Part shown: in pieces, positions 41,841-54,738 of the stretch
How positions within the stretch are numbered: position 1 is the first letter of the stretch
Layout: each line of letters opens with the position of its first letter
NCBI GenBank assembly: GCA_964016885.1
Contig: OZ024740.1
Span: forward strand, 380,556,001 to 380,620,000
DNA: 64,000 nt
From: Eledone cirrhosa
Lineage: Eukaryota
Direction: 5' to 3'
Position numbers and translations under genes: made by a program
Notes under the pieces: model-generated
Seen by the model: the letters and a program-made list of their open reading frames with translations, nothing else
The model's database searches: none
Told to the model about the DNA's origin: nothing

Positions 41841-43765
41841 CCAATAAACATCTTTCTTTTATATTACGGTGTCGATAAAATAAAGTACCAGTAATGCACT
41901 GAGTTTTTGCTGGCCTTGTGCCTAACGTAGAAACAATTATATATATAAATATGCTATATAGTTATTTTCTATCTAGAGAAAAGAAGGGAAATAATTCTTT
42001 GAAGGGAGGTAACTCTTATTCATAATCTTTTAAATAACTTTTATTGATACGTTTTCATTTTACATTTTCTATAATGATACTAATGTCATCATTTTATTAA
42101 TGATACTAATGTCATCGACTCTTGATGAATAAAGTACACTGCTAGCCAGTATCACGGATTGTAGAGGAGGAGAAATTCAAATAAATGAGTGGAACACATT
42201 CTATTGACCCTAGAAATATAAATCGATCGTTTTATATGAAATTCGAACGAACAAAAAGGAAAGTGTGCAAGGTATTTAGTCTGGAACTTAATTGCATCTG
42301 CAACTTCCATGATCCTACAATGTCAACTATTGTTTTAACTCTTTATAATTTATTTTCACGACTTCTTTTAGATTCCTCACATATGTTTAAATCTCGCAAG
42401 GATCGCCTTTATGTCTCATCTTCCTAGTGTCAAATAGTTAAGAAGTTCGTTTCACAATCGGGAAGTTCCCATTCGATATCAATACATAGAACTTTGGGCT
42501 TTTAACATATCCCCATTATAAGGGAAATTAGGTAGATGGAAATTGTGGAGAAACTAGTCTGATGGGCTGTAACTGTAATTAAAAGGGTCAGCTTTACGCT
42601 GATTCGGCTTTAGAATAAGTTTAAGATTATATGTTTCTGAGTATGTCAGAGACACTTTCATGATAATCTAATGAGCCGAGCCTACAGTTGGTTGAACGAC
42701 TAAATGCACACCATCAGAGACGAAAGAGGATCCATTATCTAATGTGTTTATCTCTTTTATAAAGGTGATTTGAGGAGGATTCGACTGCTAAACAATACTC
42801 TACGGCAACCCCCGCCCGTAAAGCATACCATCCGTATCAGGTGTCTTCAACTTACAAGCCACTTCATGAGAGATAACGAACCTGTTACAAAACTTTTACT
42901 ATGGGAGCCGACTAATATGAAACGCAAACGCGAAAGACCTCTCAAGAAATTAAAGAAAGTCATTGAGGAAAATAGAGAATTATCCGGTGAAGAACTGAGA
43001 GAGCTAATGTTGGACTGTGTAAGATGAAAAGGTTTTATCATGTCACCACAATGAAGTGGATAATTTTAGTAGTAGTTGGTTGCTAATTCTCACACGTTGA
43101 GCAACCAGTTAGATCAATGTTTCTCCTTTTATTCTTTTGTCCTACGGTCCACTTCGATTAAAAAGTAAAAAATAACACGCTCGTTCCAATATGATCGGAC
43201 AACGTAATTATATAGCATAGTGTATATACGGCCCATTCTGAAGAGCCCAGTCCTACTTCTAGAAAAACTGATGTTAAGGTTCCTTCGGTGGTTCATTGTC
43301 AATATTATAAATAAACAGTCGAGTGAGTATATTATAATTTTCGCTCGACCCAATACGTGTTTTCTTTTTTACTTTGATACTTATTTCTGTGCTAATGTAC
43401 ACACACACACACACACACACACACACACACACACACGCACACACACACACACACACACACACACACACACACACACACACACACACACACACACACACAC
43501 ACACACACACACACACACACACAACACACACACACACATATATATATATATATATATATATATATATATATATATGTATACGTACATACATATATGTATA
43601 CAGACGTATACACACATATATATATATGCACGTATCGGTTTACCGACCATTTATTATAATGCTTGGTTTGTTTGTTTGTAAACAAACAAACAAACAAACA
43701 GCCCGAATTACGCCGTACAGTGTTTAGGCAACCACGTCACCTTTTTGTTCAACACTGACACAGGA

Positions 43766-43808
43766 ACGATGTACTAGTTTCAAGCTTATTAGCTATCGTC
43801 AGCATCGT
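43766..43808 (-). ncRNA. Second, identical copy of the minimal type I hammerhead in inverted orientation
   Basis: Exact reverse complement of 44460-44502. Confidence 0.85.
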
Positions 43809-44459
43809 ATACCCTCCTGCCAGATGGCTGAACGTCTGAAAGTATATACTTTCCGTGTGCATATTAACGGCTGAGCAGCCCAATTTGCATATCGAGTGAG
43901 TTCAGTCGGCCGGGCACACCGAAAACGATAAATGGAATAGAATGAAACGAAATTTCATTTCTCACTCTTAGAACGGCGCTTACTTAAATGTAAGTATGTA
44001 TGTATCTATACGTACAATCATATATGTATACAGACGTACAGTAGTATGTATATATATACACACATGCACACATATATATATATATGCACGTATCGGTTTA
44101 CCGTACATTTATTATAATGCTCGGTTTGTTTGTTTGTAAACAAACAAACAAATGGTTAAACGTCTGAAAGTATATACTTTCCTTATGCATATTAACGGCT
44201 GAGCAGCCCAATTTGCATATCGAGTGAGTTCAGTCTGTATACATATATGTATGTACGTATACATACATACATACTTACATTTAAGTAAGTGCCGTTCTAA
44301 GAGTGAGAAATGAAATTTCGTTTCATTCTATTCCATTTATCGTTTTCGGTGTGCTCGGCCCACTGAACTCACTTGATATGCAAATTGGGCTCCTCAGCCG
44401 TTAATATGCATAAGGAAAGTATATACTTTCAGACGTTCAACCATCTGGCAGCAGGGTAT

Positions 44460-44502
44460 ACGATGCTGACGATAGCTAATAAGCTTGAAACTAGTACATC
44501 GT
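44460..44502 (+). ncRNA. Minimal type I hammerhead ribozyme
   Basis: Stem I ACGAUG/CAUCGU; CUGACGA 44466-72; stem II U-AGCU-aaua-AGCU-U (U.U closing); GAAA 44487-90; palindromic ACUAGU stem III; GUA 44494-96. Confidence 0.85.
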
Positions 44503-44908
44503 TCCTGTGTCAGTGTTGAACAAAAAGGTGACGTGGTTGCCTAAACACTGTACGGCGTAATTCGGGCTGTTTTTTTGTTTACAAACAAACAAACCGAGCA
44601 TTATAATAAATGTTCGGTAAACCGATACGTGCATATATATATGTGTGCATGTGTGTATATATATACATACTACTGTACGTCTGTATACATATATGTATGT
44701 ACGTATACATACATACTTACATTTAAGTAAGTGCCGTACTAAGAGTGAGAAATGAAATTTCGTTTCATTCTCTTCCATTTATATGTATATATATATATAT
44801 ATATAAAGGTTTACACAATATATATATATAAAGTCATAGATATATATGCGTTTTGCAACGGGTCACGTTGTGGCTCAATGAAGAATTAATAAATTAAATA
44901 ATCAGAGC

Positions 44909-51896: not shown

Positions 51897-52134
51897 CTTT
51901 ATACATATAGGAATTCAGACACACCGGGAAAAAAAATAACACGAGTAAATAACCTGGAATTCTTTTTAACAGAATCTGAACTTGGTATTCTAGGATTTAT
52001 TTTAGTGAATAGCCAATTTCTCTCGTAAATACAAAATAATTACTAGTCTTATGAGTATATAGACTTTTAAAATACCTTTATAAACTAGTCCTTCATGTTG
52101 GTAGAGCCATTAAAGTATACTATTATATAATTGG

Positions 52135-52632
52135 TAAAGTACCAGTCACGCACTGGGGTCGATTTAATCGACTTTGCCCTCCCCAAAAATTGCTGGCCTT
52201 GTGCCAAAAGTAGAAACAATTATATAATTGGTAAGATGGCGCTGGATTGGCAGTATACGTGCTTTGCGGCATAGAGTTACGCCCCTTTACGTTCTGAGTT
52301 CAAATTCCAACATTCATCCTTGCGGGATTGATAAAATAAAGTATCAGTAACGTTCTGGGTCGATTTAATCGACTTTCACCTCCCCTAATCGTTTCTAAAT
52401 CAGAAACCATTATATATTTAAGAGGACATTGGATTTGCAGTATAGGTAGAGTGTTAGACAGCATGCATGCGGCATAAAGTTACGTCTCATTACGTTCCGA
52501 CTTCAAATTCCGCCTCGGTAAGCTTTGCCTTTCATCCTTCCGGAGTCGATAAAATATAGTGTGAGTAACGCATTTAATCGACTTTTCCATCCCTCAAAAT
52601 CCTTGGCCTTGGACCTAAATCAGAAACCATTA
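52135..52632 (+). mobile_element. Cluster of three head-to-tail SINE family A copies
   Basis: The 3' end ...AGAAAC(A/C)ATTA occurs at ~52220, ~52410 and ~52630. Confidence 0.8.
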
Positions 52633-54237
52633 ATAAACAAGTATCATGCCCATGGTCACAAAGCATCGCTGGGAATCGATCTCACGACCTTACGATTGTG
52701 AACTGAACAACCTTACTGATATCTCACGCATCTTCACACACACGAAAACACACAAACACAGAAATATCTCAACGAGAAACACGAATTGCTTTTTGATTAT
52801 GGACATGTGCACGTGTGTGTTTGCGCTTACTCAGCTTAATCAATGCTGTTTGTTTATTCTCTGTAACTTACAGTTCGACAAATACAGATCGATAAGAATA
52901 AGTACTAGATCGATATGATAGACTAAATCCTTCAAGGCGGTGCTCCTGTATAAGCTTCAGCCCAATAAAATAAAGTACCACTTAAGTATGTATGGATCCA
53001 TATCTCACGATAAAGTCATAGAGACACTCTGGTGACACACGGTGTTTCTTAGACATTTTAAATCTGCCGGAGCGCATCCCTTTCCAGGTCTAAACACAGC
53101 TGATTTCTTCCGGAGAGAGTGATAGATAGATAGATAGATAGATAGATAGATAGATAGATAGTTAGATAGATATGATAAATATATATATATAGAGAGAAGG
53201 GGGGGGGGGACTCAACCTCAGTACTGAATTGCTACTTTCTATCAACCTCGAAAAGTAAAAAGCAAAGTTGCCCTCAGCTGGTTTTGACCCCAGAGACCCG
53301 GAACGAATACCGCAAAGCATTCCCTCCAACAGCTCTGTCTATTGGCCAACTATATGTGTTAAGTACTGATCTCGATATAATTGAATTTTTTTTGTCTAAC
53401 TTAGAAATCATTTCTGTATGTTGTGTTGTATTAACTCTATCCAGTATTTTGAGAAGCCAAGAGAGTGAAACAACTGGTTCCGTTTTCGGTACAAAATAAA
53501 TGGATATAAGTGTGTGTGTGTGTGTGTGTACGCTTACATATACATACTTACATACTTAATGGCTGCATCTCCGTTTCGAGAATTGCCATCCCATGACAAT
53601 TTTCTCATACACGGGTGGCATGAAAATGCTATTTTAGCCCTCCAATGATTTAGATTCCTTTCTGCATATGCTGATAAAAGCAGACATCACTTGATCTATA
53701 AAAGCTTCAAGCCCAGGCGAAGAACATATCAACATCACTGGCTACCATCGAGACGTAGGCTTTACATCAGAGTTTCCCTTCTCCTAGAATGATGTCCTAA
53801 CAAGGACTAGGAGTCTCTCATTCCCGATGGAACAGTCGCGCACTCGGGCACAACCAGAATATTTCCATGTTCCCGCAAATACATATATACGTACACAAAT
53901 ACACATTTATATCTATCTATTATGAACTGAAAACTATATATAATTATATATATATATATATATATATATATATATATATATATATATATATATATTATAT
54001 ATATACACACATATATATGGGCTTTGTGATGATTTCTCCCAAAATGAAACAGTTCTAGTCCTGTAGAAGCTATTTCTATATTAAATATTTTTACTCTGGT
54101 ATGTATTGAGTACCTTACTTACTGTGGTTACCCCCGATTGAACCCTGGATAAACTTATATATATATATATATATATATATATATATATATATATATATAT
54201 ATATATATATATATATATACATATATACATATATATA

Positions 54238-54738
54238 TATTTACTAAACCTTGTTTATATTTGTTCTGGCTCGTTAATTTATTAACCCGCCATTGAACCA
54301 CACTGGCACTTGGTTGGACAACACATGCGTACCTTGGCGCCTTGTGCGTGAAAGGACGTATTTCATATTACTACTACCTCCACATACGTTGAGAACAAAC
54401 CGGGTCATTCCGACTGCTGCTGATAACAGCGGTGGCTAGTTCGACCTACCTCCTTTTGCCTCTATCTTTACTACGGCCCTTGATAAACCTGTTCTACATC
54501 ATCCACTCTCATCCCAGGAACAGTCTTTGATAGCGCTAGTTTGTGATTTAAATTCAGGAATTTTATATTCTTTGAATGAAAAGAACCTTCTGACGAGAAT
54601 CTCTCTTTGCAACGAAGGCCGTATGGTCTCCGTTTTATTTTTGGGATTCGAAACCGATCGGTAAAGGTAACTATAGTAGGTAAAGTCAATTTTTTAAAAT
54701 TTATTTTGAAACTTTTTCATTATTTACTAAACCTTGTT
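54238..54738 (+). mobile_element. 483-bp hammerhead-bearing unit with an 18-bp terminal direct repeat, inside a (TA)n tract
   Basis: TATTTACTAAACCTTGTT at 54238-54255 and 54721-54738; long (TA)n on both sides; no coding ORF. Confidence 0.8.
54585..54668 (+). ncRNA. Type I hammerhead ribozyme, complete core
   Basis: Stem I ACCUU(54585-89)/AAGGU(54664-68); CUGACGA 54590-96; stem II GAAUCUC/GGGAUUC (7 bp, one GU) with a 39-nt loop; GAAA 54650-53; palindromic stem III ACCGAUCGGU; GUA triplet 54661-63. Confidence 0.9.

Follow-up and report, generated by a model that had tools for sequence, protein, structure and literature searches.

Hammerhead ribozyme repeats in (TA)n tracts of Eledone cirrhosa as probable non-autonomous Penelope-like retroelements

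Non-long terminal repeat (non-LTR) retrozymes consist of tandem units that are non-coding and each carry a single type I hammerhead ribozyme, and the accessible parts of their descriptions (PMC7229834; bioRxiv 10.64898/2026.07.22.740005) add a GC content below 45%, a short palindromic stem III, and the occurrence of monomer and multimer copies. In the same sources, an origin from, and mobilization by, Penelope-like elements (PLEs) is proposed; mobilization has been put forward in the literature but not demonstrated. This report concerns a stretch of 64,000 nt from Eledone cirrhosa (NCBI GenBank assembly GCA_964016885.1, contig OZ024740.1, positions 380,556,001 to 380,620,000, forward strand), hereafter the window, in which three repeat families, A, B, and C, carry hammerhead motifs. 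All of the properties listed above are found in these families, and the reading favored here, with a probability of about 0.8, is that A, B, and C are likewise non-autonomous Penelope-like retroelements (non-LTR retrozymes) mobilized by PLEs. The class, including its PLE origin, is already published (PMC7229834; bioRxiv 10.64898/2026.07.22.740005).

Several features set the three families apart. Their units are 446-660 nt long, compared with ~170-400 nt in PMC7229834, and neither (TA)n targets, nor two fixed ends (T1 and T2 below), nor a hairpin at the start site is described for published retrozymes in the accessible text of the two sources. That of PMC7229834 does not include cephalopods, and that of the preprint deals with vertebrates, insects, and a coral. 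Furthermore, cleavage and circular RNA have been shown for published retrozymes, whereas A, B, and C are known from sequence alone. The U-U that A shows at the base of its stem II recurs in the active axolotl ribozyme HHR_Amex2.

The PLEs themselves carry hammerheads in their pseudo-long terminal repeats (pLTRs). The available portions of PMC4209133, PMC3846280, and PMC11167929 describe palindromic stems III, partial tandems, inverted 5'-truncated copies, a tail on one inverted end, two reverse transcriptase (RT) start sites, and nicking of both strands, all of which resemble what is observed or proposed here, and U3-A8 core variants occur both in that literature and in autonomous elements of this genome. 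Two differences are a tail of ~57-110 nt here rather than 30-40 nt, and start sites that here share 3-7 nt of TA with the target, whereas those of the element PAc are non-homologous to it (PMC11167929). Hydra-1_Obim of Octopus bimaculoides, as far as described in PMC8557442, is inserted in (TA)n and has a canonical hammerhead, as do the families here; its hammerhead has an extra base after the core, a 7-bp stem II, and a stem III of ACCA-A-UGGU. Hydra-clade PLEs encode protein, whereas A, B, and C are protein-free and have no alignable pLTR in common with any Hydra family. A hairpin at T1, common to the Hydra elements of this genome and to B and C, goes unmentioned in the accessible text of PMC8557442. 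Closest in lifestyle are Chlamys MRC1 and Chlamys-N4 (PMC8557442; PMC9977147, both in part), which are protein-free PLE passengers arranged head to tail at a microsatellite target. They mostly lack canonical hammerheads, however, they target (C)n or (CA)n, and their 3' sequence is similar to that of their autonomous partners; in the present case, just a structural motif is held in common.

The TA bias, tails, and inversions of PLEs are already in print, and so is the insertion in (TA)n of a hammerhead-bearing Hydra element of Octopus. A literature search, outside which most subscription papers lay, did not find cephalopod retrozymes, the hairpin, a rule of one T1 and one T2 end, or hairpin-guided two-site priming. 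How PLEs form tandem, inverted, and tailed insertions and choose microsatellites is called an open question in the available part of PMC8557442. The class has been described before, and a cluster such as this one is nothing unusual in the genome; what the locus offers is a small, testable system, consisting of a 483-nt RNA (C, with copies 99% identical), a start-site hairpin with compensatory variants, and Hydra elements of this genome whose long open frames encode candidate enzymes.

Hammerhead motifs and the families that carry them

A descriptor for the type I hammerhead, written for this analysis and run on both strands of the window, returned four motifs, with CUGA at 43802(-), 44466(+), 45144(+), and 54590(+) (Table 1). 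Their CUGANGA, GAAA, and UH core surrounds three helices, with helix I open; the cleavage triplet is GUA in all four, and stem III is in each case palindromic (ACUAGU, ACUAGU, ACCAUGGU, and ACCGAUCGGU, in that order). Cuts are predicted after 45211 in the B motif and after 54663 in the C motif. The four cores with GUA and a palindromic stem III that an earlier note on this DNA had reported are thus recovered, and not one of 200 dinucleotide shuffles yields a core with a palindromic stem III. When stem III is loosened, one or two cores appear in 32 of the 200 shuffles and three or more in none. The call rests on this descriptor because a scan with Rfam 15, the type of check that the earlier note had advised, returned 65 matches at E<=1, none of them a hammerhead; an Rfam match is a convenience for a type I hammerhead, not its definition.

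An intact core is present in 34/36 copies of A, in 25/30 of B, and in every one of the 90 rows for C, some of which are repeats from loci that overlap. These counts were taken from motif lines rather than alignment columns because MAFFT misaligned the B ribozyme in the clan alignment. The cores had been described as intact or near-intact, which holds for their conserved bases but not for perfection, since the base of stem II is U-U in 34/34 A copies and A-C in 21/25 B copies; the latter may weaken the B ribozyme. A search that required only two closing pairs and did not demand palindromy gave 16 recurrent types of stem III, and 11 of them proved to be perfectly palindromic, with sequences that differ. 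Within the clan that includes B and C, the stems III ACCGAUCGGU, ACUGAUCAGU, and ACUGUACAGU change in both arms and in the center in step, and stem III palindromes and stem I covary across families. These patterns support the preservation of palindromic stems III by compensatory change, which would match the expectation of dimeric cleavage. The calculated self-duplex energies of stem III are -4.8 (A), -11.2 (B), and -16.6 kcal/mol (C), and the isolated stems III, of 6-8 nt, do not fold as hairpins. A dimeric arrangement of this kind is on record for the hammerheads of PLEs and of retrozymes. Dimeric PLE hammerheads were reportedly treated by Lunse et al. in 2017. When the whole monomer is folded as a circle, the z score, from 25 rough pair shuffles, is strong only for A, at -6.6, whereas the values of -2.6 for B and -1.9 for C are weak. 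At other loci of A and C, at least two intact hammerheads lie on the same strand, and the B dimers seen carry one that is damaged; two consecutive same-strand hammerheads are the criterion of an active locus in the accessible part of Li 2026 (bioRxiv 10.64898/2026.07.22.740005).

The first two hammerheads do not differ from each other and occupy the two mirror-image arms of a single insertion. The window consequently holds three insertions rather than four, and the motifs at 43766(-) and 44460(+), earlier taken as separate carriers, belong to one family. In this 3.0-Gb genome, a first look gave 2071 candidates for A, 3529 for B, and 1640 for C; 40 candidates were scored and 30 loci fetched per family, and the best-scoring full-length copies are 95-99% identical. 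The monomers, arranged head to tail with one hammerhead each, measure 446 nt (A), ~660 nt (B), and 483 nt (C), so that a length of ~0.4-0.5 kb, as first estimated, applies to A and C and not to B, of which the window copy is truncated. Arrays of C, the youngest of the three families, reach at least five units, and sequencing reads mapped on C contain tandem joints plus more diverged copies. The longest ATG open reading frame (ORF) in the units is only 44-75 aa, and an RT or GIY-YIG frame is absent. The units are therefore non-coding as well as adjoining (TA)n, as the earlier note had it, and with thousands of first-look candidates per family they are far from single-copy.

The kinship of the families is a different matter. 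With the ribozymes masked, the B-C alignment scores 61, a value that none of 200 shuffles reaches. The A-C score of 23 is reached by 146/200 shuffles and the A-B score of 43 by 4/200, the latter alignment consisting of TA-rich sequence only. Because the homology between B and C extends outside the ribozyme, the window holds two clans in place of the three unrelated families assumed before: B and C are remote relatives, and A alone is unrelated. A pattern derived from the motif shared by B and C has 1133 further matches in the genome compared with 0 in a control, and the 30 loci examined among them all hold related non-coding units. Clan members are mutually 42-59% identical, with a single exceptional pair at 77%. 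A sister family of A (L151, L218, L227, and L143) is also non-coding and has the same stem III, a canonical base pair at the base of stem II, and a tail hairpin related to that of A.

Two fixed ends in (TA)n and a bulged hairpin

The arms have their 3' ends at one of two fixed sites, named T1 and T2, in 50/59 cases for A, 42/44 for B, and 29/29 for C, and (TA)4 or more follows in 41, 39, and 27 of these, respectively. T1 and T2 lie ~57-110 nt apart, both at short internal TA runs. A total of 88 insertions was mapped, from which 34 single-armed ones and 15 with at least one end elsewhere were set aside. Among the remaining 39 two-armed insertions, 38 combine one T1 end with one T2 end (A 16/16, B 11/12, C 11/11), although under independent choice of end this combination would make up at most half. 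At the ends, the main TA run in common measures 7 and 5 nt for B but 5 and 4 nt for C, and T2 of A has a 3-nt match. There are only four TA runs of 4 nt or more in C, two of which are T1 and T2. Partial tandems, an inverted truncated copy, and a tail on one end are present, as in PLE anatomy; the 57-110-nt spacer corresponds to the known PLE tail on one inverted end, but its occurrence is nearly strict here.

Units of C differ at 0.001 of sites within an insertion and 0.0063 between insertions, and in one C array (L085) a private variant is repeated in all three units that cover it. Such haplotype sharing would fit a single template that was copied by rolling, or else a donor array that was itself homogeneous. 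Empty sites were sought with regard to a target site duplication and to de novo synthesis of (TA)n by the RT: 62 insertions yielded no informative paralogous one, any duplication being masked by (TA)n, and four read runs contained no joint spanning the insertion at L009.

Beside T1, at a distance of 0-4 nt on its 3' side, B, C, and three G subfamilies carry a bulged hairpin with the consensus G-Y-U-C-U-G...C-A-U-W-G-A-R-C. A search in which pair 2 was left free found 52 distinct hairpins in 1.67 Mb and 1 in the reversed control; pair 2 does pair in 41/52 and pair 7 in 46/52, with five pair types. By eye, a weaker second hairpin after T2 was seen in B and G units as well as in C. Furthermore, in the pLTRs of at least two autonomous Hydra families, the hammerhead is followed by the same bulged hairpin. 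Copies of one such family stop just before it (L262, L280), and copies of another stop 3 nt before a second, similar hairpin. The bulged hairpin was not found in A, nor after the hammerhead in three Neptune-type families. At 29818-29843 (-) of the window, a TA-flanked stub contains an isolated bulged hairpin of the Hydra type.

Candidate enzymes, a proposed mechanism, and its alternatives

Autonomous PLEs are well represented in this genome. Neptune-type elements have frames of 938 and 1096 aa, both with an RT; they show a Cx4CxxC linker, and the 938-aa frame has a Pfam GIY-YIG match. Poseidon-like PLEs and many Hydra-clade families are also present, the clade names having been read from motifs. 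Two Hydra families, L172/L276 and L261, have frames of 877 aa and 844-851 aa, with RWR/RWK and DKT motifs, a CxCx5C linker, a canonical-type hammerhead, and insertion in (TA)n, and judging by these features they fit the definition of the Hydra clade. A U3-A8 core instead of C3-G8 is seen in Neptune-type pLTRs (L121, L077, L172) and in Hydra pLTRs (L143, L172, L276), so that the two PLE clades use this variant independently.

Because both families keep its hairpin, B and C are proposed to borrow a Hydra-clade enzyme, and such an enzyme probably drives them. The assignment rests on the hairpin motif because no alignable autonomous parent was among the fetched loci; the search for a parent comprised BLAST, a tail profile, the shared-motif pattern (30 of 1133 matches), and 20 Hydra loci, and for A it turned up only the non-coding sister family. 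A Neptune driver for all three families, the first guess, was dropped after the hairpin test. The proposal in the earlier note that these units are mobilized by a TA-preferring PLE agrees with their PLE-type anatomy, with their TA targeting, and with the presence of TA-targeting PLEs with RT and GIY-YIG in the genome, but not in its premise that the families are unrelated. Nor were units linked to PLE RT/GIY-YIG ORFs, an association that it had suggested looking for, in any of the loci compared.

Taken together, these results have led to a model in which the hammerhead arrays would be transcribed, and neighboring hammerheads would pair by mutual exchange of the palindromic stem III, cleave in this dimeric state, and free monomers, which may circularize. 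A PLE RT/GIY-YIG complex would nick both strands of the self-complementary (TA)n, and each free 3' end would anneal to a short stretch of UA in the RNA, adjoining the bulged hairpin, which would position the enzyme. Priming would take place at T1 on one strand and at T2 on the opposite one, with both complementary DNAs (cDNAs) joining head to head. For B and C, the copying would be done by the borrowed Hydra-clade enzyme. The full version of this hairpin-guided twin-priming, in which a dimer nicks (TA)n, telomerase-style UA pairing takes place beside two hairpins on a single, possibly circular RNA, both cDNAs are extended around the RNA by rolling before they join head to head, and an entire retrozyme clan has retained just a cassette of hairpin and ribozyme, with which it hijacks the Hydra enzyme and helps give the ~10^5 hammerheads of the genome, is tentative and falls somewhat short of an even chance.

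Several observations weigh against the assignment of A, B, and C to PLE-mobilized retrozymes or against this model. Among the matches listed, there is no alignable autonomous pLTR for any of the three families, and the choice of loci as best full-length matches introduces a bias towards long copies. No copy in the window has two hammerheads on the same strand, each having one per strand, and the B ribozyme combines the A-C at the base of stem II with an A-G mismatch in stem I. One B insertion has T1 at both ends, and T1 of A is ragged, with a TA match of merely 1-4 nt. A gives no signal of a single template, its arms differing by 0.037 and separate insertions by 0.027, and the signal of B is weak (0.030 compared with 0.042); rare variants common to both arms are just 4/62, 2/43, and 1/5 in A, B, and C. 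In addition, the accessible text of PMC11167929 reports that for PAc, the only PLE tested in vitro, the RT start sites are not homologous to the target, that hammerhead cleavage is dispensable for insertion in vitro, and that the ribozyme needed protein.

Some of these points would suit a different explanation, which is unlikely but the best surviving of the alternatives: the units would still be Penelope passengers, but their inverted arms would be produced by self-priming of a folded-back strand or by a switch of template; T1 and T2 would then mark ends of the RNA or points of its processing rather than two start sites of the enzyme, and the hammerhead would lack activity or relevance. Self-priming has already been proposed for inverted Penelope structures (PMC3846280, in its available part), PAc needs no hammerhead cleavage for insertion in vitro (PMC11167929), and eight of nine Xenopus retrozyme dimers are reported, in a source seen in part, to be uncleaved in vitro. 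However, the two genomic ends of PAc map on its two RT start sites, according to the accessible text of PMC11167929, the strict pairing of T1 with T2 and the fixed spacing of the hairpin fit ordered priming, and the compensated palindromes indicate selection on the ribozyme.

The preservation of the hairpin with compensatory changes, among families that are 42-59% identical overall, also argues against the idea of Neptune- or Naiad-type PLEs, or of RTE/LINE (long interspersed nuclear element) enzymes, as the movers of B and C, with a hairpin that reflects ancestry only. This idea is improbable, the hairpin being absent behind the three Neptune-type hammerheads in which it was sought, but it draws on the observation that Neptune-type families with long frames likewise end at two TA-matched sites in (TA)n, on a resemblance of one Neptune-type hammerhead to C in stems I and III, and on the TA bias that a partly accessible literature reports for Neptune, Naiad, and Hydra.

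Still less probable is the view that the units are detached pLTR ends, that is, 5'-truncated stubs of autonomous PLEs that are immobile on their own. PLE insertions are mostly 5'-truncated, and other hammerhead families here are indeed such ends, two of them Hydra pLTRs and one a Neptune-type pLTR. Yet A, B, and C read from the tail back into their own hammerhead, giving the monomers of 446, ~660, and 483 nt, the C arrays hold at least five units, and no ORF is linked in the compared loci; the view is largely refuted by the tandem monomers. Finally, chance matches in AT-rich satellite-like DNA, which the Rfam scan without a hammerhead and a 32-nt satellite elsewhere that mimics a core variant might suggest, are refuted by the shuffles (0/200) and by the covariation of stems across families, with all conserved core bases present.

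Hammerhead density and other repeats

The density of hammerheads was estimated from 58 evenly spaced 10-kb stretches of the genome (580 kb), which contain 28 canonical motifs: 39 stretches have none, 13 have one, three have two, and three have three. In the same stretches, there are 19 matches to the U3-A8 variant, nine of them from one satellite. Scaling gives a total of ~1.4 x 10^5 motifs, with a Poisson range of roughly 1-2 x 10^5. The load of the window (four motifs in 64 kb, three insertions in 11 kb) lies inside the sampled range, and the special concentration within 11 kb on which the earlier note had dwelt is rejected, because 3/58 stretches also hold three. For the axolotl, 126,247 hammerheads in 28 Gb have been reported in a source available in part; the density here is some ten times higher, with descriptors that differ between the counts. 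Elements are nested in one another's TA tails, and A adjoins B at no fewer than three loci. A satellite of ~32 nt at L121 and at L162:7670-8150 mimics the U3-A8 core and inflates descriptor counts.

Table 1. Positions of hammerhead motifs, family units, hairpins, and dispersed repeats in the window
Feature	Position	Strand	Remarks
Hammerhead motif A, left arm	43766..43808	-	stem I 6 bp; U-U at stem II base; stem III ACUAGU; GUA
Hammerhead motif A, right arm	44460..44502	+	predicted cut after 44496
Hammerhead motif B	45141..45214	+	long stem II, A-C at base; stem III ACCAUGGU; GUA
Hammerhead motif C	54585..54668	+	7-bp stem II, canonical G-C base; stem III ACCGAUCGGU; GUA
Family A, left (inverted) arm	43560..44150 (left boundary approximate)	-	3' end at T1, then (TA)n and (CA)n; locus L001
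Family A, short fragment	44149..44234	-	at head-to-head junction of both arms
Family A, right arm	44233..44782	+	446-nt monomer plus ~104 nt terminal redundancy; ends at T2, then (TA)n
Family B, left (inverted) arm	44801..45082	-	carries ~107-nt tail; ends at T2
Family B, right arm	45092..45500	+	5'-truncated; ends at T1, then (TA)18
Family C	54243..54738	+	483-nt monomer plus short terminal redundancy; ends at T1; between two long (TA)n tracts
Bulged hairpin of B	44873..44908	-	directly 3' of T1; common to Hydra-clade PLEs
Bulged hairpin of C	54263..54298	+	2 nt 3' of T1
Second, weaker hairpin of C (CUC..UUGAG)	54378..54393	+	shortly after T2; read by eye
SINE-like repeat copies	47045-47165, 48614-48848, 52135-52640; near 5958, 15373, 36964, 57814, 61880
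Decayed LINE-type RT fragments	3594-3900, 30348-31389, 49436-50000		third read by eye

Remnants of further hammerhead families lie elsewhere in the window. A fourth family is represented at 54018-54155 (+) by a remnant with a damaged core, in which the first base is changed, and a 16-nt stem III; the TA tail of this remnant is the tract that received the insertion of family C, and intact copies of the fourth family occur elsewhere. A fold-back remnant of another abundant family, with the stem III AUAUAUAU, is found at 38210-38440 and ends in (TA)n, its core having been lost at the inversion junction. A decayed copy of yet another hammerhead family is present at 35544-35658 (-).

The window also contains a dispersed repeat resembling short interspersed nuclear elements (SINEs), with at least eight copies that are 70-89% identical, and a second copy, at 38766-38944, of the LINE-type fragment listed at 49436-50000. 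An imperfect 175-bp inverted repeat lies at 51724-51899.

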